Origin: a virus
Taxonomy: Duplodnaviria > Heunggongvirae > Uroviricota > Caudoviricetes
Virus record (IMG/VR): IMGVR_UViG_2711768058_000014
Strand: one strand, 5' to 3'
DNA length: 14,974 bases
Shown here: piece by piece, positions 1 to 14,974 of the stretch
Position numbering within the stretch: position 1 is the first letter of the stretch
How the letters are laid out: each line of letters opens with the position of its first letter
The notes under the pieces: generated by a model
What the model was told of the DNA's origin: nothing
The model's input: the letters and a program-made list of their open reading frames with translations, nothing else
The model's database searches: none
Made by a program: the position numbers and the translations under genes

Positions 1-1218
1 ATGAACAAACTGAGCGACACATTGCTAAGGAAACTTCATGGTAAGCCAGCGGAGAAAAACACGTTTTATAGCGATGGCGGAAATCTGAGCGTGAAATATT
101 TAACATCAGGGAAATTAACCTGGTATTTCACTTACAGGGCAGGAACGGGAAGAGAGACACGACCGGAACGTATTAAGCTGGGAAATTATCCTGATCTGAG
201 TCTGAAAGCAGCCAGGGAAAAAGCCGCCCAGTGCCGCGCATGGCTGGCTGAGGGGAAAAATCCACGTCATGAGATGAATTACACCGTACAGGAAGCGTTA
301 AAGCCCGTAACGGTTGGCGATGCGCTCACCTACTGGCTTGAGTCTTACGTAAAGGAAAACCGCGTGGATTATATCGCCCTGAAAAGGCGACTTAATAATC
401 ACGTAATACAGCAGATTGGTGCTATGCCGCTGGATAAATGCGAGCTACGGCACTGGCTGGCCTGTTTTGACCAGGTGGCAAAGCGAACGCCTGTTACTGC
501 CGGATTCGTGCTACAGGCGTGCAAACAGGCGCTTAAGTTCTGCCGTAGGCGGCGCTATGCAATCAGCAACGTTCTGGACGATCTGAACGTGGCGGACGTT
601 GGGAAAAAACCGGATATAAGCGAACGTGTCTTAAGCACCAAAGAACTGGGCGAGTTATTGCAGGCGCTGGATAAAAAAATATTTTCCCCTTACTACGTCG
701 CGTTAATCCGCCTCCTGATTGTCTTCGGAGCCAGAACGGTAGAACTGAGGTTATCGGAGATCGGGGAGTGGGATTTTACGGAAATGCTATGGACCGTTCC
801 GAAGGAGCACAGCAAAACGAAGGTCGCAATATTCCGGCCCATACCGGAAGCGATCCTGCCGTTCGTCACGCAGCTGGTGGAGCAGAACAGGCACACGGGC
901 TTATTGCTGGGGGAAGCGAAACAGGAGGCCAGCGTATCGCAGTATGGAAGATTAGCGCACAGGAGGCTTAATCATCCTCACTGGTCACTGCATGACATCC
1001 GGCGCACCTTTACAACCATGCTGAACGATTTAGGCGTTGATCCGCATGTCGTGGAGCAGCTTACAGGTCATCAGATGCCAGGAATGCAGCGAGTTTATAA
1101 TCATTCCCGTTATCTGGATGCTAAACGCAATGCGCTGGATATGTGGACGGAGCGGTTAGGGATACTGGCGGGAACACATGAAAACGTAACCACGCTACCA
1201 GTAGCCAGAAGAAAATAA
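1..1218 (+). CDS. int: P4-family tyrosine integrase
   Basis: 405 aa; N-terminal arm-binding-type region (LSDTLLRKL...FYSDGGNLSVKY...KLGNYPDLSLKAAREKA) and C-terminal catalytic region with HDIRRTF...H...Y residues typical of tyrosine recombinases; ATG at position 1. Confidence 0.9.
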   Translation: MNKLSDTLLRKLHGKPAEKNTFYSDGGNLSVKYLTSGKLTWYFTYRAGTGRETRPERIKLGNYPDLSLKAAREKAAQCRAWLAEGKNPRHEMNYTVQEALKPVTVGDALTYWLESYVKENRVDYIALKRRLNNHVIQQIGAMPLDKCELRHWLACFDQVAKRTPVTAGFVLQACKQALKFCRRRRYAISNVLDDLNVADVGKKPDISERVLSTKELGELLQALDKKIFSPYYVALIRLLIVFGARTVELRLSEIGEWDFTEMLWTVPKEHSKTKVAIFRPIPEAILPFVTQLVEQNRHTGLLLGEAKQEASVSQYGRLAHRRLNHPHWSLHDIRRTFTTMLNDLGVDPHVVEQLTGHQMPGMQRVYNHSRYLDAKRNALDMWTERLGILAGTHENVTTLPVARRK

Positions 1219-1592: not shown

Positions 1593-1781
1593 GTGTTAAG
1601 CACTGATCGGTTTATACGTGAAAAAGAATGCGAAAAGCTAACAGGCCTTAGCCGCTCATGCCGCTACCGCCTGGAAAAGGCCGGACAATTCCCATCACGT
1701 CGTAAACTTGGCGGTCGTTCCGTTGGCTGGTCTTTATCCGAGGTTCTGGCCTGGAAGGATAGCTGCAAGGCAGTTCATTAA
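1593..1781 (+). CDS. alpA: AlpA-family transcriptional regulator (MerR-like helix-turn-helix)
   Basis: 62 aa; KLTGLSRSCRYRLEKAGQFPSRRKLGGRSVGWSLSEVLAW matches the AlpA pattern; GTG start preceded by AAGGGGG ribosome-binding site. Confidence 0.8.
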   Translation: MLSTDRFIREKECEKLTGLSRSCRYRLEKAGQFPSRRKLGGRSVGWSLSEVLAWKDSCKAVH

Positions 1782-2045
1782 TCACGCTGGCGGCACGCAG
1801 CCGCCACACATCCACTAATACAGAGATATAACCATGAAGATTGAATATGCGCCCGAACGTGGGCGGGGATTCGTTCGCCCTGGTGAAACTGAAAAACAAC
1901 AAAATTGGGGTTTATCAGGAATAAAAAAAGCGGCCCCGAAATGGAGCCGCCTTTCTGAACAGATAACCCGCTGCGCCGTTTGTGTGTGTGATCCCAAACA
2001 TAAGAACGGCAATGATAGTCGCTATCAGGCTGGTGGGCAATGTTA

Positions 2046-2219
2046 TCAGTCTGGTTCAGTTCGTTGCCATACCTGCAATGAGCGCTTTTCCCTGTACTCT
2101 TTAAGGAATTGCTCAAGGGCAAAAGCACATGGCGCGAATCTTTCTGATTCATGCTCTATCTTTCTGCGCCGTCTTTTCCGTGCCGGTGATAATGTTTTGG
2201 TCAATTCTTTATCGGTCAT
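2046..2219 (-). CDS. Small basic hypothetical protein (57 aa, ARKRRRRK stretch)
   Basis: ORF downstream of the RHH gene on the same strand; AGGA 7 nt upstream of the internal ATG at 2219; possible terminator hairpin at 1930-1950 with T-run on the minus strand. Confidence 0.4.
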   Translation of the reverse strand: MTDKELTKTLSPARKRRRRKIEHESERFAPCAFALEQFLKEYREKRSLQVWQRTEPD

Positions 2220-2276
2220 TGTGTTGTCCTGCATAGCAATGCGCCGTAGTACCTCACACCACGGCGCTGGTGATGG

Positions 2277-2456
2277 TTACTCCTGCTCTTTGGCCTTGCG
2301 GCGCTGGCGGCGTTTGATTTCGCCTTTAACGGCAGTAACTATAAATTGCGCTTTGCTTTCACCTTCATCTAAATTTTTTTCTAAGTCTGCAACAACATCA
2401 TGCGGGAATCTGGCATTTAACTGTTGCGACTTATTATTTGTTGAACCTGTTGCCAT
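2277..2456 (-). CDS. Ribbon-helix-helix (Arc/CopG-like) DNA-binding protein, candidate repressor
   Basis: 59 aa from ATG at 2456, preceded by GAGAGGA; predicted beta-strand QQLNARFPHDVV followed by two helices; faces a divergent intergenic region. Confidence 0.6.
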   Translation of the reverse strand: MATGSTNNKSQQLNARFPHDVVADLEKNLDEGESKAQFIVTAVKGEIKRRQRRKAKEQE

Positions 2457-2477
2457 TACAGAATCCTCTCTAAGTTG

Positions 2478-2568
2478 GTGCGATTCAGTATACACAAAAA
2501 AAATTCAGAGAAAAAGGCTTGAAGTGCGATTCACTTGCTGATAGGTTAAAAACAGATGGTGCGATGCA
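2478..2568. promoter_or_regulatory. Three copies of GTGCGAT(T/G)CA in the divergent promoter region, candidate operators
   Basis: Copies at 2478-2487, 2524-2533 (inside AAGTG-cgatt-CACTT) and 2559-2568 (inside GGTGC-gat-GCACC). Confidence 0.45.
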
Positions 2569-2640: not shown

Positions 2641-2841
2641 ATGGTTGCCGTAAATCATATACCACACCTTGTACACACACAAACGGCCTTTGTGTGGCGT
2701 TTTCTGGCACTGAGTGCCGGAGAATCTCAAATCATCCACGTAACCGCCTGGACGGAACGCGAAGCGCGTAGCCGTTGCCCGTCCGGTTGTGTTGCTGTAT
2801 TCGCCGCCCGTATTCGTCAGGAGGTGTGCCATGTGCAATAA
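2641..2841 (+). CDS. Hypothetical small protein (66 aa), possible first gene of the replication operon
   Basis: AGGAG 5 nt upstream of ATG; stop overlaps the next start; composition unremarkable, so uncertain. Confidence 0.35.
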   Translation: MVAVNHIPHLVHTQTAFVWRFLALSAGESQIIHVTAWTEREARSRCPSGCVAVFAARIRQEVCHVQ

Positions 2842-3070
2842 AACCACACCGGACGCAGCAGCCGCCGCGCTCACTACGCTGATGCACGCGCTTATTGATA
2901 TTTCTGTTATTGCTGACAGGGCGCATAAGCACGCCACCAATGAAACAGAATATGCCGGGGCTTTCGTTCCTCATTCGCTGGCGGTTATGCAACTTAGTGC
3001 TGATATGGCGCTGAATGAGGATAAAGCCATCCTGATTGCTGATTGTGAAAATGGGGGTGGTTATGCGTGA
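2831..3070 (+). CDS. Hypothetical small helical protein (79 aa)
   Basis: AGGAGG ribosome-binding site then ATG at 2831; stop overlaps the next start in ATGCGTGA. Confidence 0.55.
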   Translation: MCNKTTPDAAAAALTTLMHALIDISVIADRAHKHATNETEYAGAFVPHSLAVMQLSADMALNEDKAILIADCENGGGYA

Positions 3071-3296
3071 TGATCGTTTTAATTCCCTGAAACAGGAATT
3101 TTCCGGCGTTCCTGATGATGCGGCTGATGCGCTTTCGTCAATGCCAGAGCTTATTAGAGCGGCTTTTTTCTTACTTTCCACGAGAGAATATAAATCAACG
3201 GGGCTTGATGTACTGAATATCGCCGCCGATTATGCGGAATATGTGGCAGAGGCGCATTACAGAAGAAAATTTCCTGAGGATGTAAGCCATGCGTGA
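3063..3296 (+). CDS. Hypothetical small protein (77 aa, starts MRD)
   Basis: GGGGGTGG ribosome-binding site; ATGCGTGA overlaps at both ends (translational coupling). Confidence 0.55.
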   Translation: MRDDRFNSLKQEFSGVPDDAADALSSMPELIRAAFFLLSTREYKSTGLDVLNIAADYAEYVAEAHYRRKFPEDVSHA

Positions 3297-3522
3297 TATT
3301 TACCACGAAACAATATACCGTGCATCACTTGCACTTTCTCACAGTGAAAGCATGATGGAAATATTGCGGATGTGCCTTGAATCCTTTGGCGATAATGAAC
3401 GTAATGCAAAAAAAACGCGGATTATTACATCATTAATAACGCTTCTTGAGCCTGTAATAAATGAGTTGCAGGAAATAGAGACATTGCACGACAGATATAA
3501 CGAACAGCACACCGGAGAATAA
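3289..3522 (+). CDS. Hypothetical small protein (77 aa, starts MRD)
   Basis: Start embedded in the same ATGCGTGAT junction as the preceding gene. Confidence 0.55.
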   Translation: MRDIYHETIYRASLALSHSESMMEILRMCLESFGDNERNAKKTRIITSLITLLEPVINELQEIETLHDRYNEQHTGE

Positions 3523-3527
3523 AAATA

Positions 3528-3827
3528 ATGAAACTTAAATATTCTGGCTTAACTGCCAGTGGCAACACTCACCCTAAATTTACGCGCGGTGATATTTACC
3601 GCGACCAGTACGGCGGCACGGTAATGATTAAGGGCGTGGAAGAACGGCGCGTAACCTACCGCCGTGAAGGCTACGAATATGACTGCGTGATGCCTGTTTA
3701 TCAGTTCCGGCGTGATTTTTCTCTGGTACAGGCAGCGCCCCGCAGTAAACCAACCAGCAGGGAGAAAGCACGCGCCAATATTCAGGAAATAAAAAAGATA
3801 CTTAACGTATTCAGGGGTAAAAAATGA
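3528..3827 (+). CDS. Hypothetical protein (99 aa)
   Basis: ATG 6 nt after the previous stop; its stop overlaps the primase start (ATGA). Confidence 0.6.
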   Translation: MKLKYSGLTASGNTHPKFTRGDIYRDQYGGTVMIKGVEERRVTYRREGYEYDCVMPVYQFRRDFSLVQAAPRSKPTSREKARANIQEIKKILNVFRGKK

Positions 3828-5578
3828 AACTGGCACCGAACGTAAAACAGCAGTCACGCGGCATAAAACACAAAGAAACAGAAGTCATTATTTTTGCGGG
3901 TAGTGATGCCTGGTCACACGCGAAACAATGGCAGGAACATGATGCGCGTATGGCCGGAGATAATGAGCCTCCTGTGTGGCTTGGGGAGCAGCAGCTATCC
4001 GAACTGGATAATCTGCAAATTGTGCCGGAAGGCCGAAAATCAGCACGCATATACAGGGCCGGATATCTTGCGCCAGTAATGATAAAGGCGATTGGCCAGA
4101 AGCTGGCGGCGGCAGGCGTACAGGATGCAAATTTTTACCCTGATGGTATGCACGGTCAGAAGGTGGAGAACTGGCGCGAATATCTGGCCCGTGAGCGCCA
4201 GAATCTTTCTGATGGTCTGGTCATTGAGCTTCCGGTAAAGCAAAAGGCGCAACTTTCGCAGATGGCGGACAGTGAGCGCGCGCAGCTGCTTGCCGATCGC
4301 TTTGATGGCGTTTGCGTACATCCTGAAAGTGAAATCGTTCACGTATGGCGCGGCGGGGTATGGTGTCCGGTCAGCACAATGGAACTTAGCCGCGAAATGG
4401 TGGCGATCTATTCAGAGCACAGGGCCACTTTCAGCAAGCGCGTAATCAATAACGCCGTGGAAGCGTTAAAAGTTATTGCCGAACCAATGGGCGAGCCGTC
4501 CGGCGATTTGCTGCCGTTCGCCAATGGTGCGCTTGACCTGAAAACGGGGGAATTTTCCCCGCACACGCCGGAGAACTGGATCACCACGCACAACGGCATT
4601 GAGTACACGCCACCAGCACCAGGGGAGAACATCCGCGATAACGCGCCAAACTTTCATAAATGGCTTGAGCACGCAGCCGGAAAAGACCCGCGCAAGATGA
4701 TGCGTATATGTGCCGCGCTGTACATGATTATGGCGAACCGGTACGACTGGCAGATGTTTATTGAGGCCACCGGAGATGGCGGGAGCGGTAAAAGTACATT
4801 CACGCACATAGCCAGCCTTCTGGCAGGGAAACAGAACACGGTAAGCGCTGAAATGACGTCGCTTGATGATGCTGGTGGACGTGCGCAGGTTGTCGGGAGT
4901 CGTCTTATCGTCCTGGCTGACCAGCCGAAATATACAGGCGAAGGAACGGGCATCAAGAAAATCACGGGCGGTGACCCCGTGGAAATTAACCCGAAATACG
5001 AAAAGCGTTTCACGGCTGTAATCAGGGCGGTGGTGCTGGCGACCAACAATAACCCGATGATATTCACCGAACGGGCCGGAGGTGTGGCACGTCGTCGCGT
5101 GATTTTCCGTTTCGACAATATCGTCAGTGAGGCCGACAAAGACAGGGAGCTACCGGAAAAGATCGCGGCTGAAATCCCTGTCATTATCCGCCGATTGCTG
5201 GCGAACTTTACCGACCCTGAGAAGGCACGGGCTTTACTACTGGAACAGCGTGACGGTGATGAAGCTCTGGCAATAAAGCAACAGACGGATCCGGTTATTG
5301 AGTTTTGCCAGTTCCTGAATTTTCTGGAGGAAGCACGCGGCCTGATGATGGGCGGCGGTGGCGATTCAGTGAAGTACACGACCAGAAACAGCCTTTACCG
5401 CGTCTATCTGGCGTTTATGGCGTACGCAGGCAGGAGCAAACCGCTAAACGTAAATGACTTTGGCAAGGCTATGAAGCCAGCCGCGAAAGTTTACGGACAT
5501 GAATATATTACGCGGAAAGTTAAGGGAGTAACGCAGACTAACGCAATAACAACAGACGAGTGCGACGCGTTTTTATAA
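3824..5578 (+). CDS. P4-family primase / D5-type NTPase replication initiator (pri-rep)
   Basis: 584 aa; Walker A GDGGSGKST about residue 320 followed by a Walker B-like hydrophobic stretch ending LIVLAD; region resembles the phage/plasmid primase P4 C-terminal domain; iterons immediately downstream. Confidence 0.85.
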   Translation: MKLAPNVKQQSRGIKHKETEVIIFAGSDAWSHAKQWQEHDARMAGDNEPPVWLGEQQLSELDNLQIVPEGRKSARIYRAGYLAPVMIKAIGQKLAAAGVQDANFYPDGMHGQKVENWREYLARERQNLSDGLVIELPVKQKAQLSQMADSERAQLLADRFDGVCVHPESEIVHVWRGGVWCPVSTMELSREMVAIYSEHRATFSKRVINNAVEALKVIAEPMGEPSGDLLPFANGALDLKTGEFSPHTPENWITTHNGIEYTPPAPGENIRDNAPNFHKWLEHAAGKDPRKMMRICAALYMIMANRYDWQMFIEATGDGGSGKSTFTHIASLLAGKQNTVSAEMTSLDDAGGRAQVVGSRLIVLADQPKYTGEGTGIKKITGGDPVEINPKYEKRFTAVIRAVVLATNNNPMIFTERAGGVARRRVIFRFDNIVSEADKDRELPEKIAAEIPVIIRRLLANFTDPEKARALLLEQRDGDEALAIKQQTDPVIEFCQFLNFLEEARGLMMGGGGDSVKYTTRNSLYRVYLAFMAYAGRSKPLNVNDFGKAMKPAAKVYGHEYITRKVKGVTQTNAITTDECDAFL

Positions 5579-5593
5579 TTTTTTGTAATTGCT

Positions 5594-5817
5594 GTCTACC
5601 CTGTCTACCTGAGTAAAGAAAAATACATTTAATTCAGTGCATTAAGTTAGGTAGATAGCCTTTTTTTACTGTCTACCCACTATCTACCCTCTCTACCTGA
5701 TTTTACCTGAATCAGACAGGGAGGTAGACACGGGGTAGATAGTGGATAAAAGCACTCTACCCCGCTGAAAGCCGCGCCATTACTGGTATGAGGGCCACTA
5801 AGGTAGATAAGGTAGAC
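5594..5817. repeat. Replication origin iterons: about 11 copies of heptamer (G/A/C)TCTACC in both orientations, with an AT-rich spacer
   Basis: GTCTACC at 5594, 5603, 5671; ATCTACC 5682; CTCTACC 5691, 5755; inverted GGTAGA(C/T) at 5650, 5723, 5734, 5802, 5811; AT-rich stretch 5620-5670. Confidence 0.7.
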
Positions 5818-5866
5818 AAGGGGAGGCACAACTCAAAACTTTTTAAACGAGGGGGTAAAAATAAAT

Positions 5867-6145
5867 ATGCACACTTCAGGGAAATTTAATAAATCACTCA
5901 AAAAACGCAGAGACAGAACAGAACCGAAATATCGCGCGTTAGACATGACAGAGCACGCTTTAAAGGTGGCAATCAGAACGATAGACCGCCACGCGGGGGA
6001 AGGATACGCGAAAGCACATCCCGAACTGATAAGCGCATTCATGACCACGACGGCGGCAAATTTTGCCACGCTGACAGAGCGGGAGATTGCCGAAGCGGAA
6101 CAGGTAACAACCATCAACGTTAAAACCGGAGAGGTGGAATCATGA
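5867..6145 (+). CDS. Hypothetical protein (92 aa)
   Basis: GAGGGGG ribosome-binding site; ATGA overlap with the downstream SSB-like gene. Confidence 0.55.
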   Translation: MHTSGKFNKSLKKRRDRTEPKYRALDMTEHALKVAIRTIDRHAGEGYAKAHPELISAFMTTTAANFATLTEREIAEAEQVTTINVKTGEVES

Positions 6146-6552
6146 CAGCACAGATAGCAGCTTACGGGCGGCTGGTGGACGACCCGCAGGTAAAACAGAC
6201 CAGCAAGGGTACACCGATGACGCTGGCGCGTATGGCGGTATCGCTGCCATGTAGTCAGGCGCAGGATGGGCAGGCGACGTTATGGCTATCGGTCATCGCA
6301 TTTGGTAAGCAGGCCGACTTCCTGGCTAAACATCAAAAAGGCGACGTTGCCAGCGTATCCGGCACGATGCAGGTCAGCCAGTGTACCGGACAGAATGGGG
6401 AAACGCGGCAGGGTTATCAGGTTATTGCAGACAGCGTAATCAGTGCCCGTGCGGCACTTCCTGGCGGGAACAGACGCAAAACCACAGGCACACAGGGTAA
6501 TCAGCCACCAGCGGGAGGCGATGACCCTTACGGTGACGGTATTCCGTTCTGA
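6142..6552 (+). CDS. Divergent single-stranded-DNA-binding (SSB)-like protein
   Basis: 136 aa; OB-fold-like N-terminal part (AAYGRLVDDPQVKQT...LWLSVIAFGKQADFLAKH...), Gly/Pro/Gln-rich linker and acidic tail ending DDPYGDGIPF (compare SSB DDDIPF). Confidence 0.7.
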   Translation: MTAQIAAYGRLVDDPQVKQTSKGTPMTLARMAVSLPCSQAQDGQATLWLSVIAFGKQADFLAKHQKGDVASVSGTMQVSQCTGQNGETRQGYQVIADSVISARAALPGGNRRKTTGTQGNQPPAGGDDPYGDGIPF

Positions 6553-6562
6553 GGGGGTGGCG

Positions 6563-6835
6563 ATGGTACATGACCGCATAGCGGAAGAACTCGAGGCGAA
6601 AGGCTTTTACCGGAGGGCGGCGGCGCGATGGGGTGAAGTCATGCTGCTGGTGGAGACAGACAAGGAACGGCATCAGGTTACGATGCGACGGCTGGAATGT
6701 TCCAGGAAGGCACAGAAGCCACCGGAGCCGCCGGATAACTTCGGAGACCTGAGAAAGGCAGTAGATCGCACTTATGCTGAAATGGGTATAGATGGTGTAA
6801 GCGATGAAATATGGCGTAATTACCCAGACAGCTAA
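6563..6835 (+). CDS. PerC-like small transcriptional regulator (tentative)
   Basis: 90 aa from ATG after GAGGGGGTGG; N-terminal MVHDRIAEELEAKGFYRRAAARWGEV recalled as PerC-family-like; not verified. Confidence 0.45.
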   Translation: MVHDRIAEELEAKGFYRRAAARWGEVMLLVETDKERHQVTMRRLECSRKAQKPPEPPDNFGDLRKAVDRTYAEMGIDGVSDEIWRNYPDS

Positions 6836-6840
6836 TCAAC

Positions 6841-6865
6841 AGCCGGAGAAATCCGGCTTTTTTTG
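6841..6865 (+). terminator. Rho-independent terminator (AGCCGGA-gaaa-TCCGGCT then T7)
   Basis: Perfect 7-bp GC-rich stem, 4-nt loop and U-tract directly after the PerC-like gene. Confidence 0.7.
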
Positions 6866-6959
6866 CACCAGTTGAAACGGTATGGTGCATTACCGGGTTT
6901 TCGTCACGGTCAGGCATAGTTACTATCTGAAACAAACAGACACAACAGAGGAAAAAACA

Positions 6960-7184
6960 ATGCCGATGAAATTTGATGAGATATTAAAACAGCGTGATAA
7001 ATACCATGCTGACAACATGGAGACGATGAGCATCAATGATTACCGCGCATTCCTGGAGACGGGCGCACTGATTGAAAAGGATCAGCATGGTTTTGTGAGA
7101 TGTGCTCTATCCGGTGAAATGCTGGCGGTAAATCCTGAACAGATAGATGCATTGATAGAATTTCTGAAAGGGATCAGGGACTGA
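6960..7184 (+). CDS. Hypothetical small protein (74 aa), cassette-like ORF between identical terminators
   Basis: GAGG ribosome-binding site; flanked by 24-bp identical terminator repeats. Confidence 0.5.
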   Translation: MPMKFDEILKQRDKYHADNMETMSINDYRAFLETGALIEKDQHGFVRCALSGEMLAVNPEQIDALIEFLKGIRD

Positions 7185-7194
7185 GCACCCATAC

Positions 7195-7218
7195 AGCCGG
7201 AGAAATCCGGCTTTTTGT
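7195..7218 (+). terminator. Second copy of the same terminator hairpin
   Basis: acagccggagaaatccggcttttt is identical at 6839-6862 and 7193-7216. Confidence 0.65.
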
Positions 7219-7438
7219 CATTTTTTGTAAATTATTTGTTCGTGGTTGTTCCACGTTGTTCACTGAGCGGATCGGCATATTTTACCCGAACTGAATCATG
7301 ATTATTCTCGCCCGTGGTGCCAGGACGCTGGGGCCACTTTTCCGCCTGTTAATGTTCTCGCCAATATTCATTACCAGGCGGGAAAACGATCGGTGCGATT
7401 GCTGATTTCCTTATGAAAAACGGTTGAGTTTTTGCCGC

Positions 7439-7475
7439 GTCCTGGAGTTCCTTACTTAACCCCAGGACTTTTTTT
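7439..7475 (+). terminator. Terminator-like hairpin GTCCTGG-(16 nt)-CCAGGAC plus T7, ending at the capsid ATG
   Basis: 7-bp stem at 7439-7445 and 7462-7468, U-tract 7469-7475, ATG at 7476; no Shine-Dalgarno sequence. Confidence 0.5.
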
Positions 7476-8633
7476 ATGCCGAGAATAATCGAATTACGCC
7501 AGCAGAAAACCGCCATTAAAAATCAGATGCGCGACATGCTGGAGAACGCGGAAAAAGAAAACCGCAGTCTTAACGATGCTGAGGGCGCAAAATTTGACGA
7601 ATTACGCACTAAAGCTGAATCCCTCGATAAAGACATTTCCCGCCTTGAAGCCATTGCAGACGAAGAGCGCAGCAAGCCAGGTAAAAGCAGTCAGACCACT
7701 GACCCCGCAGAACTACGCAACTACATCCTGACAGGTGAAACCCGCGCATTAAGTACAGGCGTTCCCGCTGATGGTGGTTATACCGTTATCCCCGAGCTGA
7801 ACACCGAAATCATGCGAATGCTGGCGGATGAATCCACCATGCGCCGCATCTGTACCGTGAAGAAAATCAGCAGCAACGAGTTTAAGCAGCTTGTTTCCGC
7901 TGGCGGTGCGACCGTTAACCACGGTGAAGAGGGTAAGGCACGCGAACAGACCAGCACCCCGCAGATTAACGAGGTGAGCATTAAGCTGTATCCGGTCTAT
8001 GCGTACCCGCGCACCACACAGGAAATCGTGGATTTTTCCGATGTGGACATCCTTTCATGGCTGACGGGTGAGATTGGCGACACCTTCACGGAAACCGAAG
8101 AAAGCGATCTGGTTGTGGGCGACGGTGACAAAAAAGCAAAAGGTTTTTTATCCGTACCCCGTGCAGAGAAGAACGACAAAGAGCGTGATTTTGGTACGTT
8201 GCAGGTAATTAAACCTTCCGAATCTCTGGCGTGGACATCTGCGGACCCGCTGATCGACCTGAAATTTGCATTACGTAAAAAATACCGCAAAAACGCGGTC
8301 TGGGTGGTTAACTCCACGACGGCGGCAAAACTTCAGAAGGTGAAGAACGCGAACGGTGATTACATCTGGCGCGACCGTTTACAGGCGGGTGATCCTGATA
8401 CGTTGCTGGGCCTTCCGGTCGAATATCTGGAGTTTATGCCTGATAACGTTATTGCCCTGGGTGACTTCAAACGCGGTTACTACATTGTTGATCACGAAAC
8501 AGGTGTTCGCACCAGACCGGACAACCTCACAGAGCCGGGCTTCATCAAAATTTTCACGCAGAAATATTTAGGCGGTGGCGTGGTGGATTCGAACGCGATC
8601 AAGATTCTGGAACTGCCACAAGACGACGATTAA
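7476..8633 (+). CDS. HK97-fold major capsid protein with N-terminal coiled-coil delta (scaffold) domain
   Basis: 385 aa; coiled-coil N-terminus (RQQKTAIKNQMRDMLENAEKE...DKDISRLEAIADEER) then a capsid-like body; size and position next to protease and portal. Confidence 0.9.
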   Translation: MPRIIELRQQKTAIKNQMRDMLENAEKENRSLNDAEGAKFDELRTKAESLDKDISRLEAIADEERSKPGKSSQTTDPAELRNYILTGETRALSTGVPADGGYTVIPELNTEIMRMLADESTMRRICTVKKISSNEFKQLVSAGGATVNHGEEGKAREQTSTPQINEVSIKLYPVYAYPRTTQEIVDFSDVDILSWLTGEIGDTFTETEESDLVVGDGDKKAKGFLSVPRAEKNDKERDFGTLQVIKPSESLAWTSADPLIDLKFALRKKYRKNAVWVVNSTTAAKLQKVKNANGDYIWRDRLQAGDPDTLLGLPVEYLEFMPDNVIALGDFKRGYYIVDHETGVRTRPDNLTEPGFIKIFTQKYLGGGVVDSNAIKILELPQDDD

Positions 8634-8643
8634 CAGCATACAG

Positions 8644-8672
8644 AAGGGGCTTAAAAGCCCCTTTAGTGTTTT
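8644..8672 (+). terminator. Hairpin AAGGGGC-ttaaaa-GCCCCTT with U-rich tail after the capsid gene (partial terminator)
   Basis: Read directly from sequence; placement typical of attenuation after a highly expressed capsid gene. Confidence 0.45.
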
Positions 8673-8687
8673 ATGGGTGAAAAAATT

Positions 8688-9245
8688 ATGAAGAGTATGG
8701 AAATCCGGTCATCGGAAATCACCACCAGCGGAGCCGGTACGCTGACGGGCTACGTTGTTCGCTGGGATAAGCTTTCAGAACTGCTATGGGGGGAGTTTTA
8801 CGAAAAATTCCAGCGGGGGGCGTTTACTGAGTGGCTTGCGGCGGGTAATGACGTTCGCGGCCTGTATGAGCATGACCACAGCATGTTACTGGGGCGCACC
8901 CGTTCCGGCACGCTGAAACTGGAAGAGGACGACACAGGGTTACGCTTTGAACTTACCCCACCGGATACCAGCACAGGGCGTGACGTTATCGAACTGGTTA
9001 AACGTGGTGATATATCCGGCATGAGCTTTGGCTTTCGTTCCCGTAAGGATGTATGGGATACCACAACAGATCCATGCGTGCGCACCGTGCTGGTGGCGGA
9101 ACTGTACGAAATTACCGTTACATCCGTACCGGCTTACCCTGATTCCGGCGTGGAGCTGGCCCGCCGTTCCCTGTATGAGCAGCACCCCGAAAAAATGCCG
9201 CGTGCGGATAATCGCCGCTGGTGGGCGGATTTAGCGGGGGTGTGA
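8688..9245 (+). CDS. HK97-family prohead protease (S78-like)
   Basis: GYVVRWDKLS...GAFTEWL...LYEHDHSMLLGRT...GDISGMSFGF pattern; start could instead be the ATG at 8673 (no ribosome-binding site there). Confidence 0.85.
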   Translation: MKSMEIRSSEITTSGAGTLTGYVVRWDKLSELLWGEFYEKFQRGAFTEWLAAGNDVRGLYEHDHSMLLGRTRSGTLKLEEDDTGLRFELTPPDTSTGRDVIELVKRGDISGMSFGFRSRKDVWDTTTDPCVRTVLVAELYEITVTSVPAYPDSGVELARRSLYEQHPEKMPRADNRRWWADLAGV

Positions 9246-9246
9246 T

Positions 9247-10458
9247 ATGTGGCCTTTCAGAAGAAAAAAAGAGCAGCGCAGCATGACGCTGGATGAATTT
9301 ATGGCGCTGGCCGGCACATCGAACACGGGGTCGGGTGAGTACGTATCATCGGGGACAGCGGAATCACTGCCCGCCGTCATGAACGCCGTCACGGTCATCT
9401 CTGAGGCGGTGGCTACCATGCCATGCTACCTGTACCTGGTACGCAATGAGAAGGGGAAGGAGGCCCGAGAGTGGCTTGATTCTCATCCGGTCGATCACAT
9501 CCTCAACGAGCGCCCGAACGCGTGGCAGACTCCCTACCAGTTTAAGCGAATGATGATCCGCCACTGCCTGTTAAACGGTAATGCTTATGCGGTGATTCAG
9601 TGGGGGCGTGATGGTTTTCCGGTGGCTTTACATCCTTACCCGCCGCAGTCGGTGAACGTGGAGCAGACAGGCGAACACAACTGGCGCTACTGCATCACTG
9701 ACGCCTACACCGGAAACACCCGCAACTATTTACCGTGGGAGGTTCTCCACCTTCGTTACTCCACGGATGACGGTTTTATGGGGCGCTCACCTGTAACCAT
9801 CTGCCGCGAATCGCTGGGGCTTGGGCTGGCCCAACAACGCCACGGCGCGAGCGTGATGCGTGATGGCATGATGGCGGCAGGGGTTATCACGTCAGGCGAA
9901 TGGCTGGACGGCGTGAAAGGCAAACAGGCATTAGCCGCACTGGAACGCTACAAAGGGGCCAGAAACGCCGGAAAAACGCCCATCCTTGAAGGGGGTATGA
10001 GCTATCAGCAGCTGGGCATGAGTAATCAGGATGCTGAATGGCTGGCCTCCCGTCGCTTCACCATTGAAGACATCGCCCGAATGTTCAACGTCTCGCCGAT
10101 TTTTTTGCAGGAATACAGCAACAGCACCTACAGCAATTTCAGCGAGGCAAGCCGCGCATTTCTCACTATGACGATGCGCCCGTGGCTGGCGAACTTTGAG
10201 CAGCAGATAAAAAACGCCCTGCTGGTGGCCTCGCCTGTACCTGGTATCCGGTATCAGGTGGAGTTTGACAGCGCGGACCTGTTACGGGCCACACCTGGCG
10301 AACGCTTTGCCACCTATGAACGCGGCATCAAATCCGGCGTTATGTGCCCGAACGAAGCCCGCGAACGTGAAGGGCTGTCCCCGCGTGATGGTGGTGATGA
10401 GTTCAGCCAGGCATGGAAACAGGAAGTAAAAATCAGCGAGGGAGAAAAACCGGAATGA
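9247..10458 (+). CDS. HK97-family portal protein
   Basis: 403 aa; portal-like conserved central and C-terminal regions (EDIARMFNVSPIFLQEY...MRPWLANFEQQI); start overlaps the protease stop. Confidence 0.9.
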   Translation: MWPFRRKKEQRSMTLDEFMALAGTSNTGSGEYVSSGTAESLPAVMNAVTVISEAVATMPCYLYLVRNEKGKEAREWLDSHPVDHILNERPNAWQTPYQFKRMMIRHCLLNGNAYAVIQWGRDGFPVALHPYPPQSVNVEQTGEHNWRYCITDAYTGNTRNYLPWEVLHLRYSTDDGFMGRSPVTICRESLGLGLAQQRHGASVMRDGMMAAGVITSGEWLDGVKGKQALAALERYKGARNAGKTPILEGGMSYQQLGMSNQDAEWLASRRFTIEDIARMFNVSPIFLQEYSNSTYSNFSEASRAFLTMTMRPWLANFEQQIKNALLVASPVPGIRYQVEFDSADLLRATPGERFATYERGIKSGVMCPNEAREREGLSPRDGGDEFSQAWKQEVKISEGEKPE

Positions 10459-10793
10459 ACATAGGGCGACTGCGTGACAGGGTAACGATTCAGACCCTGA
10501 AACAGACCAGGGATATAACCGGCGAAATACTCGAAACGTGGGAGGACGGTCACACACTCTGGGCAAGCGTGAACATGATCAGCAGCAAGGAGGCCATTTC
10601 ATCGGGTGCAGAGCTGGCGATTGGTACCGTAAGGATCTGGATACGGTACCGGAAGGACATCAACGCCACCAGCCGGATAAAGGTCAGTACGGGGCCGCTG
10701 GCGGGGCGTGTACTGAATATCATCGGGCAGCCGCTGCCGGATGCCGCCAGGACACGCCTTGAAATTCTTTGTCGTGAGGGCGCGGAAAAATGA
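10455..10793 (+). CDS. Head closure / head-tail adaptor protein (Phage_H_T_join-like)
   Basis: MNIGRLRDRVTIQ...IRYRKDI...LEILCRE pattern; ATGA overlap with the portal stop. Confidence 0.75.
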   Translation: MNIGRLRDRVTIQTLKQTRDITGEILETWEDGHTLWASVNMISSKEAISSGAELAIGTVRIWIRYRKDINATSRIKVSTGPLAGRVLNIIGQPLPDAARTRLEILCREGAEK

Positions 10794-11086
10794 CAGAAGA
10801 ACTTATCACCCTGGAAGAAGTGAAACTCCATTGCCGCATCGATGGCGACGAGGAAGACCAGTTAATCAGCGGATACATTGCCGCATCGCTTGAGGCGTGC
10901 CAGATACATATAGGCAGGCGCTTTGATGACGGGCTGGAGTTCACGCCAGCCATAAAGATTGGCTGCATGATGTTTATCGCTCACCTGTACGAGAATCGCC
11001 AGCTGGTAGCGGATAACGCAAAAACGCGCGTACCCATGACGATTGGCGCGCTCTGGACGGCTTACCGTGATGTGGGGGTGTACTGA
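10790..11086 (+). CDS. gp6-like head-tail connector protein
   Basis: ITLEEVKLHCRIDGDEEDQLISGYIAASLEA resembles the Phage_connect_1 N-terminus; ATGA-type overlaps at both ends. Confidence 0.7.
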   Translation: MTEELITLEEVKLHCRIDGDEEDQLISGYIAASLEACQIHIGRRFDDGLEFTPAIKIGCMMFIAHLYENRQLVADNAKTRVPMTIGALWTAYRDVGVY

Positions 11087-11526
11087 TGCCGTGGCAACCA
11101 TTAAGACGATGCACAGAACCAGGCTGTAACAGGCGCGTGAAGTCCGGCAAGTGTGAGGAGCACAGGCGGGCGGCATGGCGTGCAGAGGATGCCAGACGAG
11201 GACACCGCCGCGCGCGTGGGTACTCCAGACAGTGGGACAAATACCGCGCCATGTATCTGAGTAAAAACCCGTTATGCGTGCGATGCCTTGAGAAGGGGAT
11301 ATATACGCCCGCCGTGGTGGTGGATCACATTATCCCGATTAATGGCGGTGATGATGTTCTCTTCTGGCCCGAATGGAACCATCAACCATTGTGCCAGGCG
11401 TGTCATAACCAGAAAACGAAATGGCTTGATCCGGCAACAAAAAGCAAGCGTGCCGCAGGTGGATTTCATGAAGAGGAAGAACGGGCCGCTAACCGCAATA
11501 ACTGGATGTATGACGCTGATGAATGA
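11086..11526 (+). CDS. HNH endonuclease, packaging-associated
   Basis: CxxC...DHIIPINGG...WNHQPLCQACHNQKT: HNH motif with zinc ligands; sits just upstream of TerS/TerL. Confidence 0.85.
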   Translation: MPWQPLRRCTEPGCNRRVKSGKCEEHRRAAWRAEDARRGHRRARGYSRQWDKYRAMYLSKNPLCVRCLEKGIYTPAVVVDHIIPINGGDDVLFWPEWNHQPLCQACHNQKTKWLDPATKSKRAAGGFHEEEERAANRNNWMYDADE

Positions 11527-11692
11527 GCGGGAACAAAACCGCCTTATCCGTGGACTTATAAGGCAGCGTGACGCATGGAAGACACAGGAAACAGGGCATA
11601 AAGATAAAGCGTCAGGACGCGCAGAACGCATCACAGCGAAGCGATTAACCGACCGTGACCGCGAGGTTATGGAATGTTTCCGCAATCGCTGA
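11510..11692 (+). CDS. Possible small ORF (60 aa) overlapping the HNH 3' end
   Basis: ATG in the +2 frame 17 nt before the HNH stop; no clear ribosome-binding site; basic and helical. Confidence 0.25.
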   Translation: MTLMNEREQNRLIRGLIRQRDAWKTQETGHKDKASGRAERITAKRLTDRDREVMECFRNR

Positions 11693-11814
11693 TGAGGCTG
11701 TATGACGGGGTGGGGGGCGTTTTCAGGACAAACCCGACCCCGCCGGGCACCGAACGCCTCCTCAAATTTTTATGCACGGGAATTTTTTGAAAAATAATCT
11801 GACGAAAAATAAGC

Positions 11815-12171
11815 ATGGCAAGACCACCGAAAGCCCCCGCCTACCTGGATGACATCGCCGTGAAGCAGTGGCGGGAAAAATCGCGGCAGCTTGCGGAACG
11901 GGGAGACCTGACCCCCGCCGACTGGAGCAATCTGGAACTGTATTGTGTCAACTACTCCATTTACCGGAAAGCCGTCGCAGACCTTGCGGCGCGCGGGTTC
12001 AGTATTGTTAACAGTCAGGGCGGCGAGAGCAGAAACCCCGCATTAAGCGCGAAATCAGACGCTGAAAGGGTGATGATAAAAATGGCCTCCTTGCTCGGTT
12101 TTGACCCGATAAGCCGCCGTAAAAACCCACCGGAAACAGAAGAAGAGGACGAGCTTGACCGCCTGGAATAA
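11815..12171 (+). CDS. terS: Terminase small subunit (P27-family-like)
   Basis: 118 aa; PADWSNLELYCVNYSIYRKAVADLAARGF...LLGFDPISRRK pattern; overlaps the TerL start. Confidence 0.8.
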   Translation: MARPPKAPAYLDDIAVKQWREKSRQLAERGDLTPADWSNLELYCVNYSIYRKAVADLAARGFSIVNSQGGESRNPALSAKSDAERVMIKMASLLGFDPISRRKNPPETEEEDELDRLE

Positions 12172-13816
12172 GTACGCAGAAGACGTAAAAACGGGCAAAA
12201 TTCCGGCCTGTAAACGGCTGAAACAGGCCGTTAAACGGTACTTTTCGGACCTTAAAAGCCCCCTATACACGTTCGATCGTGAGGTTGTGGAGCGGTTTAT
12301 TTCCTTTTCCAGGGTGTGCCCGCACGTAAAAGGACCGATGCGTGGCAGACCCATTGAGCTGGAGCCGTGGCAGCAGTTCGCCTTTGCGTGCATCCTCGGC
12401 TTTAAGGTTAAGGCCACCGGACGGCGCAAATACACGAGCGCCTTTATCGAAGTGCCGCGCAAAAATGCGAAATCCACGACCGCCGCGATTCTGGCTAACT
12501 GGTTTCTGATTATGGAGAACGGTCAGCAGGATATCTACACCGCAGCGGTGAGCCGTGACCAGGCGCGGATCGTCTTTGATGATGCGCGTCAGATGTGCCT
12601 TTTATCCCGACCGTTACGCAGGCGGGTGAATATTCAGGCGCATAAGGTGATACACCCGAAAAGCAACAGCCTGTTAAAGCCGCTGGCAGCAAAAGCGGCA
12701 ACCATCGAGGGAACAAACCCAAGCCTTTCCATCGTGGACGAATACCACTTGCACCCCGATAACGGCGTTTATTCCGCGCTTGAGCTGGGGATGGGCGCAC
12801 GTCCCGAAGGGCTGTTATTTGCCATTACCACATCAGGCAGCAACGTCGTTTCAGCCTGTAAGCAGCACTATGATTATTGCTGCCAGATCCTGGACGGCGA
12901 AGAGGTTAACGATTCAATTTTTGTACTGATTTACGAACTGGACGACGAAAACGAGGTTGATGATCCGGCGATGTGGATAAAGGCGAACCCTAATATTGAT
13001 GTTTCCGTCGATCGTGAAAAACTGGCCTCAACCATCCAGAAAGCGCGGGGTATTCCGTCGCAGTGGGTGGAGATGATGACAAAGCGATTTAATATCTGGT
13101 GCCAGGGGGCTACCCCGTGGATGGGTAACGGCGCATGGGCTGAGTGTGCCGGAACGTTCACGGAGGAAGATTTACACGGCCAGGAGTGTTACGCGGGGCT
13201 GGACTTATCATCAACCAGCGATATTTCCAGCGTGTGCTATGCCTTTCCGGTCGGTAAAACCATTATGCTGGTTTCCCGTCACTATCTGCCGGAATTTCAG
13301 CTACAGAACCCCGCCAATAAAAACCGCGCCATCTATCGTCAGTGGGCTAAAGCAGGCTGGATACGCACAACGCCTGGCGACTGCATTGATTACGACCGGA
13401 TCAGAGATGACATCATGCAGGACGCGGAGAAATTTAATATCAGGCTGGTGGGCTTTGATACGTGGAACGCCACGCATCTCAGAACGCAATTACAGGGGGC
13501 AGGTTTTGAGGTGGAGCCGTTCCCGCAAACCTACCTCAGATTCAGTCCGGCGGCGAAATCGTTCGAAGTTTTTGTTAACCGCAGGGTGATTGTGCATCGT
13601 GGCGATCCGGTGTTGTCCTGGTCGATGAGTAACGTCGTGATGCAGAGTGACGCGAACGCCAATATCAAGCCGAACAAGAAAAAATCACCGAACAAGATAG
13701 ACCCGAGCGTGGCGGCGCTGATGGCGTTTGGTACATTCCAGGCAGAGCATGAGGATTTTGCTTTTGATATAAGCGACAGCCACCGCCAGAAACTGGAAGA
13801 ATTTAGCGGGGTGTAA
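12155..13816 (+). CDS. terL: Terminase large subunit (ATPase-nuclease)
   Basis: 553 aa; ATPase region with Walker A-like VPRKNAKST and downstream acidic nuclease-like residues; TTG start after GAGGA. Confidence 0.9.
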   Translation: MTAWNKYAEDVKTGKIPACKRLKQAVKRYFSDLKSPLYTFDREVVERFISFSRVCPHVKGPMRGRPIELEPWQQFAFACILGFKVKATGRRKYTSAFIEVPRKNAKSTTAAILANWFLIMENGQQDIYTAAVSRDQARIVFDDARQMCLLSRPLRRRVNIQAHKVIHPKSNSLLKPLAAKAATIEGTNPSLSIVDEYHLHPDNGVYSALELGMGARPEGLLFAITTSGSNVVSACKQHYDYCCQILDGEEVNDSIFVLIYELDDENEVDDPAMWIKANPNIDVSVDREKLASTIQKARGIPSQWVEMMTKRFNIWCQGATPWMGNGAWAECAGTFTEEDLHGQECYAGLDLSSTSDISSVCYAFPVGKTIMLVSRHYLPEFQLQNPANKNRAIYRQWAKAGWIRTTPGDCIDYDRIRDDIMQDAEKFNIRLVGFDTWNATHLRTQLQGAGFEVEPFPQTYLRFSPAAKSFEVFVNRRVIVHRGDPVLSWSMSNVVMQSDANANIKPNKKKSPNKIDPSVAALMAFGTFQAEHEDFAFDISDSHRQKLEEFSGV

Positions 13817-13829
13817 TGAGGTCAGCAGC

Positions 13830-14111
13830 ATGACAGAAGCCGAAATAACGGGATTAATCCGCCGCGTTGCCGGAATCAGCCAGCAGGTTGACGAACAGGC
13901 CACGCAGCCGGACAGCGTGACAGCCGAAAACTATGCGCGTGTTGTTGCTGAGGTGATGCGCCGTGATGGTATAGAACTTAATGGCGTGGATATGCGCAAC
14001 ATACGAACCAGAGTTCTTGAGTTGCTGGCCTACCGTCGCCGCGTGGAGATGTATCGGGAGAAGGAGAAAATAACGTACCACTGGAAGAAGCCGGAGCGGT
14101 TGCGGCGGTAA
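13830..14111 (+). CDS. Hypothetical protein (93 aa), last island gene after TerL
   Basis: GAGG ribosome-binding site 8 nt upstream of ATG; helical and charged; no recognisable motif. Confidence 0.5.
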   Translation: MTEAEITGLIRRVAGISQQVDEQATQPDSVTAENYARVVAEVMRRDGIELNGVDMRNIRTRVLELLAYRRRVEMYREKEKITYHWKKPERLRR

Positions 14112-14227
14112 CTGGTTGATATTCCCGACGGCCCAAAAATGGGTTGGCTACACCCCTCACAACTACGACATTTTCGCAGTTTAATTAATGGTCAGCTTAA
14201 TCGCTAACCCGCTGATATTTTCGGAAA

Positions 14228-14809: not shown

Positions 14810-14974
14810 TCAATGTGTTATGCGAAATAAGTTATATATAACAGCAATAAATAATGCGAGAATAAACGGCACGATGATCTCGGCGGCAAAACGGATACCG
14901 CAGAGAATAATGACCAGCATTCCCAACATAATGACGATTTTTAGGCCATTGAGCGTGATGATCGGCTTTGCCAT
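14810..14974 (-). pseudogene. tqsA: Truncated 5' fragment (54 codons) of a tqsA/ydgG-like inner-membrane transporter gene
   Basis: Minus-strand translation [54 protein letters not shown]; N-terminus recalled as TqsA-like; the premature stop falls where island DNA begins. Confidence 0.5.

Follow-up and report, generated by a model that had tools for sequence, protein, structure and literature searches.

The window, by which the whole analysed stretch of 14,974 nt is meant, is 100 % identical to sequence from Escherichia coli strain JMF1, where an element of ~15 kb interrupts tqsA. [quoted passage not shown] The packaging part lies after perC, and comprises genes for an HK97 capsid (matching TIGR01554 at 1e-87), prohead protease, portal, head-closure protein and head-tail connector, with HNH, P27-type TerS and TerL genes furthest to the right (RefSeq features). 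The annotation from int to the right tqsA fragment lists no gene for tail or lysis functions, and an Rfam scan of the window returned no structured RNA at gathering thresholds. [quoted passage not shown] As the int/alpA/primase set of this element, together with its capsid-to-TerL set and the lack of tail and lysis genes, corresponds to the published definition, the host element is, judged by its gene content, a cfPICI.

Table 1. Coordinates of the features in and around the ssb gene of the window
Feature	Position (nt)	Strand	Remarks
Integrase	1–1218		
HTH/AlpA-like regulator	1593–1781		
Primase-helicase (Pri-Rep)	3824–5578	+	D5_N, DUF5906 and Pox_D5; P4-family primase C-terminus
Iteron array, putative replication origin	5593–5818	.	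Nine exact GGTAGAYA plus degenerate copies
ORF92	5867–6145	+	92 aa, function unknown (phrog_1231); stop overlaps ssb start
ssb	6142–6552	+	ATG start, 136 aa plus TGA; same protein as RefSeq WP_053295553.1 (100 % identity)
OB-fold domain of SSB, residues 1–102	6142–6447	+	AlphaFold2 (AF2) model, Foldseek, BLASTP versus E. coli SSB
Codon 81 of ssb	6382–6384	+	TGT (Cys) versus TGG (Trp) in relatives; aligned with W88 of E. coli SSB, an ssDNA-stacking residue
Disordered linker of SSB, residues 103–126	6448–6519	+	pLDDT 55–65; carries family motif S-A-R-x-x-R-P-G-G-(R/K)
C-terminal tip of SSB, DDPYGDGIPF, residues 127–136	6520–6549	+	Homologous to SSB-Ct (E. coli ...DFDDDIPF)
PerC-family regulator	6563–6835	+	PF06069, E = 3e-45; last gene of the ORF92-ssb-perC block
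Intrinsic-terminator-like hairpin and T-run	6839–6862	+	Just 3′ of perC; splits replication block from capsid operon

Comparison with two prototype islands indicates that the element is a mosaic, with a CFT073-type replication module joined to an EDL933-type packaging module. Positions 2820–6786 (DUF4222, primase, origin, ORF92, ssb and perC) are 92 % identical to EcCICFT073 of strain CFT073, and positions 5891–14123 (ORF92 through TerL and beyond) are 97.1 % identical to the EDL933 island, i.e. the 15.4 kb prototype cfPICI EcCIEDL933. Taken with the gene content, this latter identity bears out the proposal, made in an earlier reading from the sequence only (hereafter the sequence-only reading), that ssb is encoded by a satellite. 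The helicase and origin of EcCIEDL933 differ from those of the window, being of the DUF927 type, whilst the ORF92-ssb-perC block is shared (97 %); replication specificity has therefore been swapped between ~4246 and 5890. The exchange of helicase and origin with retention of this block also argues that the SSB is not co-adapted to one particular initiator. The arrangement of a primase-helicase, an iteron origin, a small ORF with an ATGA overlap, ssb and perC is common to both prototypes and the window, and the position of perC relative to ORF92 and ssb is the same in CFT073, EDL933 and other islands. The insertion site is different, with the island of the window residing in tqsA and the prototype next to phoQ. 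EcCIEDL933 is known to be induced in a helper-phage-dependent manner, to form small capsids and to be transferred with helper tails.

With regard to the putative origin, the sequence GGTAGAYA has nine exact occurrences where 0.48 are expected, with both orientations represented, and 9/9 fall within the array 3′ of the primase-helicase gene. An AT-rich tract (~5611–5648) separates the first iteron pair (5593–5609) from the other copies, and the iteron region is near-identical to that found 3′ of pri-rep in EcCICFT073. The PICI origin has been placed immediately 3′ of pri-rep (Fillol-Salom et al. 2018), and the layout of iterons and AT tract seen here resembles that described by these authors.

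ORF92 and ssb are joined by an ATGA overlap, in which the TGA of the former (6143–6145) shares two residues with the ATG of the latter (6142–6144), and a Shine-Dalgarno-like run, GGAGAGGTGG, is located at 6128–6137. The overlap on which the suggested translational coupling of the two genes was based is confirmed; the pairing, on the other hand, lacks conservation. Homologues of ORF92 occur solely in islands of E. coli, Shigella and Citrobacter, tblastn detects none adjoining the SSB in islands of Klebsiella or Edwardsiella, or in further ones of E. coli, and the ORF that overlaps the start of ssb in other islands is either unrelated (257 or 110 aa) or absent. A conserved ORF92-SSB two-gene unit was accordingly rejected. 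Searches of Pfam and NCBIfam with ORF92 produced no significant match, its only PHROGs match is to the unknown-function family phrog_1231, and the AF2 model is that of a small helical protein of low confidence (pLDDT 65). A sigma-70 promoter scan upstream of ORF92 yielded no plus-strand candidates, and hence the ORF92-ssb-perC block is probably transcribed from the upstream early operon.

The product of ssb, MTAQIAAYGRLVDDPQVKQTSKGTPMTLARMAVSLPCSQAQDGQATLWLSVIAFGKQADFLAKHQKGDVASVSGTMQVSQCTGQNGETRQGYQVIADSVISARAALPGGNRRKTTGTQGNQPPAGGDDPYGDGIPF, is identical to a RefSeq entry that already bears the name single-stranded DNA-binding protein, and several searches place it within the bacterial SSB family. 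When aligned to SSB profiles, as the sequence-only reading had proposed, it matches PF00436 (Pfam SSB) with 58.6 bits (E = 7e-16; gathering cut-off 26 bits), with residues 5–99 covering model positions 4–101 of 104, and phrog_44 (PHROG 44, single strand DNA binding protein) at E = 7.5e-37. Matches to SSBs in the PDB number 21 by sequence and 38 by family profile, the latter including E. coli SSB (1e-12). Conversely, its score of 49.4 bits against TIGR00621, the chromosomal-type ‘ssb’ subfamily, lies below the curated cut-off of 53.95, and the OB domain shares 25 % identity with that of E. coli SSB (BLASTP). These last two values make the label ‘divergent’ a fair one, whilst ‘SSB-like’ undersells the molecule: it is a genuine, bacterial-type member of PF00436, and its profile scores place it in a divergent short lineage of that family, outside the housekeeping TIGR00621 subfamily.

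Structural predictions agree with this placement. An AF2 model built on an alignment of 67 diverse relatives has pLDDT values of >90 across residues 1–102, and displays strands at residues 3–11, 16–19, 25–36 and 44–54, a helix at 55–62, and strands at 69–82 and 88–101; that is, the SSB-type order of four strands, one helix and two long strands. The best 50 Foldseek matches to this model in the PDB are bacterial SSBs in 50/50 cases (E ~5e-9, probability 1.00). An OB fold, a five-stranded barrel whose helix falls between strands 3 and 4, is therefore predicted with confidence, where its absence had been named as grounds for abandoning the SSB assignment; its extent, however, is three quarters of the protein rather than the N-terminal half first supposed. 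In the BLASTP register, W48 and F54 correspond to W54 and F60 of E. coli SSB, and are conserved as Trp in 63/67 and as Phe in 66/67 of the diverse relatives, respectively. Only G74 and F136 are invariant across the 67-relative alignment.

Beyond the OB domain, the linker reads RAALPGGNRRKTTGTQGNQPPAGG, and its description as Gly/Pro/Gln-rich is fair, given that these three residues account for 11/24 positions (46 %). It is basic in character, with three Arg, one Lys and no acidic residues, and includes an RRK cluster; the AF2 confidence over residues 103–136 (pLDDT 55–65) is consistent with disorder. The S-A-R-x-x-R-P-G-G motif that follows the OB domain is basic, strongly conserved and family-specific, with R106 retained in 58/67, P107 in 57/67, and both S101 and A102 in 53/67 of the diverse relatives. 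The C-terminus reads ...GGDDPYGDGIPF, and so ends in DDPYGDGIPF exactly as had been stated. What does not hold is the proposal that this ending mimics the SSB tip. An exhaustive search with HMMER obtained 257 matches at E <= 1e-10 from 1.84 billion cluster representatives, and many of these are short SSBs of ~125–150 aa with (P/D)F(D/N)D-x-(I/L)PF at the C-terminus. The 67 diverse relatives were drawn from these matches, and among them F136 is present in 67/67, D132 in 62/67 and P135 in 43/67, giving a consensus of PFDDxIPF. Because the tip is conserved family-wide in this manner, homology is favoured and mimicry rejected. The commonest ending among 120 close relatives is GGDDPYGDDIPF (59 sequences), and tail variants in this set are GDDIPF (most), GDNIPF and GDGIPF, making the form in the window a minority one; the sister allele of EcCICFT073 itself ends in GDDIPF. 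From these alignments, DDPYGDGIPF is best described as an ordinary homologous SSB C-terminal tip, slightly less acidic than the ...DDDIPF of E. coli.

In overall plan the protein is like E. coli SSB (178 aa; PDB 1eyg, 1eqq, 1kaw), in that one N-terminal OB domain is followed by a disordered linker and an acidic ...IPF tip. There are, nonetheless, several differences: an equivalent of W40 is lacking and the L23 region is shorter; the linker is ~24 residues long and basic, as opposed to ~56 and neutral; the tip retains one Asp of the DDD triplet along with two upstream Asp; and the S-A-R-x-x-R-P-G-G motif after the OB domain is particular to the family of the window protein.

The SSBs of the two prototypes are also 136 aa in length, with that of EcCICFT073 (WP_000126698.1) carrying four substitutions relative to the window and the GDDIPF tail, and that of EcCIEDL933 (WP_000126692.1) carrying two, with an identical GDGIPF tail. 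Both keep W81 and R106, each of which is altered in the window allele. Position 81, which is Cys in the window, is occupied by Trp in 106/109 of the close relatives and by an aromatic residue in 64/67 of the diverse ones. The second change, R106L (CGT to CTT at 6457–6459), falls inside the S-A-R-x-x-R-P-G-G motif and breaks it; L106 is common to the window and at least two other strains, whilst the EDL933 and CFT073 alleles have Arg. An O157:H16 allele differs from the window protein solely by its W81, a non-synonymous change, and the EDL933 and window alleles are separated by two non-synonymous and five synonymous changes. In these comparisons W81C is a private substitution of the window allele. 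The exact window protein is encoded on 17 NCBI contigs from several isolates, and as it recurs in this way the allele can be taken as a real polymorphism. Owing to W81C and R106L, ssDNA binding by the window SSB may be weaker than that of the sister alleles, i.e. the allele may be hypomorphic in this respect.

The SSB lineage is common in E. coli, where ssb is found in 1098/5426 complete genomes (~20 %), with as many as six copies in a single genome. In a collection of 50,697 phage genomes the best match has 34 % identity, the nearest being SSBs of staphylococcal phages, and the gene occurs on 36/72,556 plasmids, for which the top records are the same island gene. A close phage or plasmid origin was rejected on these grounds, and the lineage is, by this survey, essentially island-specific. 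For relatives at 57–72 % identity, ssb lies directly after a primase-helicase in all islands examined (Edwardsiella, Klebsiella and E. coli), with the primase being of the D5_N/DUF5906 or DUF927 type in Edwardsiella and E. coli, and Toprim+DUF927 in Klebsiella. A contig scan with the single SSB protein produced three Klebsiella loci, and the genomic context comes mainly from contigs encoding the relatives. Upstream, the genes called in the islands of Edwardsiella and E. coli are int and an AlpA-family regulator, and in those of E. coli a ProQ/FinO-like gene and perC lie 3′ of ssb. Capsid genes are absent from most of these related islands, and the SSB is therefore a standard part of enterobacterial PICI-type satellites rather than a cfPICI speciality.

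Other mobile elements, among them conjugative plasmids and temperate phages, also encode extra PF00436 proteins, which usually have a host-like tip and are thought to supplement host SSB; F ssb is reported to rescue ssb-1(ts) E. coli. The window protein resembles these (F ssb, and staphylococcal phage SSBs encoded beside Erf/Sak recombinases) in being an additional SSB supplied by a mobile element. It differs in its partners, which are a primase-helicase and an iteron origin as opposed to a recombinase or the leading region of a plasmid, as well as in its low identity to the phage SSBs and the rarity of its lineage on plasmids.

Considered together, these features suggest that ssb is a replication-module gene of an E. 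coli phage-inducible chromosomal island, the product of which coats ssDNA and recruits the host replisome via its tip; a probability of roughly 0.7 is assigned to this reading. The gene is not a new one, since it is annotated in RefSeq, is present in both prototype satellites and is classed under replication in the literature, and the SSB name goes back to the O157 Sakai genome (‘prophage Sp7 ... single stranded DNA-binding protein’). Among the genes of Gram-negative PICIs, SSB has been listed under replication, in one group with Primase and DUF5906, the PICI replication genes whose positions coincide with those of mapped origins (Mageeney et al. 2023). The suggestion in the sequence-only reading that the protein may serve island replication agrees with this, and with the conserved site of ssb, which in all the related islands examined is next to a primase-helicase and an iteron origin. 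The role as such is supported by homology and gene position, and the literature searched contained no experiments, either mutant or biochemical, on any PICI, cfPICI or satellite SSB.

The sequence of events envisaged is as follows. A helper phage would induce the island, leading to expression of the rightward early operon, and the iteron-flanked AT-rich tract would then be melted by the Pri-Rep helicase. The SSB of the island, which is presumably homotetrameric, would coat the ssDNA thereby exposed, along with the lagging-strand template, during high-copy, concatemeric replication, and its ...D-x-I-P-F tip would recruit host SSB-interacting proteins of the replisome and of repair (e.g. the Pol III chi subunit, PriA and DnaG). 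In this way the island might gain its own supply of SSB at a time when the SOS-damaged chromosome, the helper and the satellite compete for that of the host. Such a contribution is probably helpful rather than essential, because the rep-ori of EcCICFT073 is a functional replicon, rep and ori being enough on their own for a plasmid to replicate in E. coli (DH5alpha), and host SSB can evidently do the work. It is likely that ssb is absent from that rep-ori fragment.

A first alternative is that the copy in the window is hypomorphic or drifting, with W81C and R106L marking relaxed selection on a protein that contributes little. Both substitutions are at strongly conserved sites, as detailed above, W81C is the one change that sets the protein apart from the O157:H16 allele, and the sufficiency of rep-ori with support from host SSB would make loss of function tolerable. 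Set against this are the intact ORF and its recurrence across several isolates, and the fact that the island is otherwise intact, with 97 % identity to a prototype that is proficient in transfer. In E. coli SSB, moreover, replacement of a single Trp lowers ssDNA binding without eliminating it. Drift of this allele is therefore regarded as unlikely, albeit with some claim to attention.

A second possibility, raised in the sequence-only reading, is that the protein acts as a decoy or competitor, whereby its IPF tip, or mixed tetramers, would titrate SSB-interacting proteins (RecQ, ExoI, PriA, chi and RecO, among others) away from host or helper, interfering with helper replication or recombination, or biasing resources to the island. 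The tip is indeed the most conserved part outside of the OB core, the lineage is essentially island-specific, and the tail in the window is less acidic than canonical DDDIPF; a conserved tip, however, is equally expected of a normal replicative SSB, and the ssDNA-contact aromatics, which would be superfluous in a pure protein decoy, are kept family-wide. Moreover, lambdoid helpers depend on host SSB, so that such titration would presumably harm the island's own replication also. The decoy is also disfavoured by EcCIEDL933, the SSB of which is only two residues apart and has the same tail, and which does not impair its helpers: neither titre nor plating of HK106 and HK446 is reduced. The decoy is thus thought improbable. 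As an annotated SSB that adjoins the origin of a known E. coli satellite, the protein is better viewed as a routine replication accessory than as a new kind of decoy.

Similarly doubtful is a more elaborate version, in which the island SSB would be a specialised adaptor that diverts the host SSB-interactome or SSB-sensing immunity for the benefit of the satellite, with the W81C/R106L/G133 allele a separation-of-function variant. In favour of this one can cite the lack of a close phage homologue, the conserved basic S-A-R-x-x-R-P-G-G-(R/K) motif and the invariant terminal Phe. If it were true, the window allele would bind its partners but ssDNA only weakly. Least probable of all is a role in defence or counter-defence, with the SSB shielding island ssDNA from host nucleases, or triggering or blocking SSB-sensing immune systems, and so altering the success of helper or competitor phages: although Retron-Eco8, Hna, DARNA and DRT10 are reported to sense phage-encoded SSBs, satellites often carry defence cargo (PMC10085698), and the gene is very widespread, ssb sits within the conserved replication block and outside the variable accessory regions, EcCIEDL933 does not interfere with its helpers, and PADLOC models match neither the SSB nor its neighbours. 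Membership of a defence system was rejected on the basis of the last of these, there being 0 PADLOC matches for SSB, ORF92, PerC and five other small ORFs.

With the island SSB seen as an accessory to replication, the point of interest becomes what a satellite gains from an SSB of its own when rep and ori already make use of host factors. In this regard, the natural W81C allele offers a ready test of selection on ssDNA binding in these islands.

By sequence comparison, the island is a mosaic of segments of the EcCICFT073 type (the prototype E. coli PICI) and the EcCIEDL933 type (the prototype capsid-forming PICI). The C-terminal part of its helicase and its origin are of the EcCICFT073 type, with 92 % identity, whilst from ORF92, the 92-aa ORF preceding ssb, through TerL, it is 97 % identical to EcCIEDL933, which unlike the window harbours a DUF927 helicase. 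Relative to the EDL933 locus, the replication-specificity module has been swapped across window positions 4246-5890, with a breakpoint lying just upstream of ORF92. The intergenic array contains nine exact iterons against 0.48 expected, displays an AT-rich tract after the first iteron pair, and is near-identical to the origin region of EcCICFT073. With regard to the integrase region, DNA identity is 92 % to EcCIEDL933 and 86 % to EcCICFT073. In E. coli JMF1 the island interrupts tqsA, whereas both prototypes instead reside between roxA and phoQ.

Features of the island (window positions)
Feature	Position	Strand	Remarks
Integrase region	1-1218		Compared in the JMF1 locus
Right end of the window	14810-14974		Compared in the JMF1 locus
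235-aa ORF	1834-2541	+	RefSeq: incomplete pseudogene
72-aa ORF	2277-2495	-	3′ part annotated by RefSeq as YlcI/YnfO-family gene
Iteron array	5593-5818		GGTAGAYA, both orientations; between primase gene and ORF92
W81C codon	6382-6384	+	ssb; aligned to E. coli SSB W88
Post-OB motif	6442-6477		SSB residues 101-112, directly after OB fold
R106L codon	6457-6459	+	ssb
'Trigger factor, frameshifted'	about 6804-6919		116-nt RefSeq pseudogene; JMF1 locus 13205-13320
Direct repeat ACAGCCGGAGAAATCCGGCTTTTT	6839-6862; 7193-7216		Exact, 24 nt
100-aa ORF	6882-7184		phrog_1957; between perC and capsid gene

The two copies of ACAGCCGGAGAAATCCGGCTTTTT, each forming a terminator-like hairpin with a T-run, bracket the 100-aa ORF. 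The trigger factor annotation, which overlaps the end of perC and is present in JMF1, EDL933 and other strains, looks like a spurious call that has been propagated. Capsid-less E. coli PICIs (L008-L013, positions about 9460-9995) possess a ProQ/FinO-like gene (PF04352) between ssb and perC, which is lacking in the window, EcCIEDL933 and EcCICFT073. Elsewhere, the 72-aa ORF, overlapped on the opposite strand by the 235-aa ORF, is the only leftward gene, with the rest of the island transcribed rightward.

The exact window ssb allele is carried by 17 contigs, and W81C is the sole difference between it and the O157:H16 allele. Alignment of relatives demonstrates that positions 81 and 106 are both strongly conserved elsewhere in the family. 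Amongst diverse relatives, conservation of the motif S-A-R-x-x-R-P-G-G-(R/K) exceeds that of most of the OB domain, with R106 present in 58 of 67 and P107 in 57 of 67. This motif, which is absent from E. coli SSB, is specific to the family.
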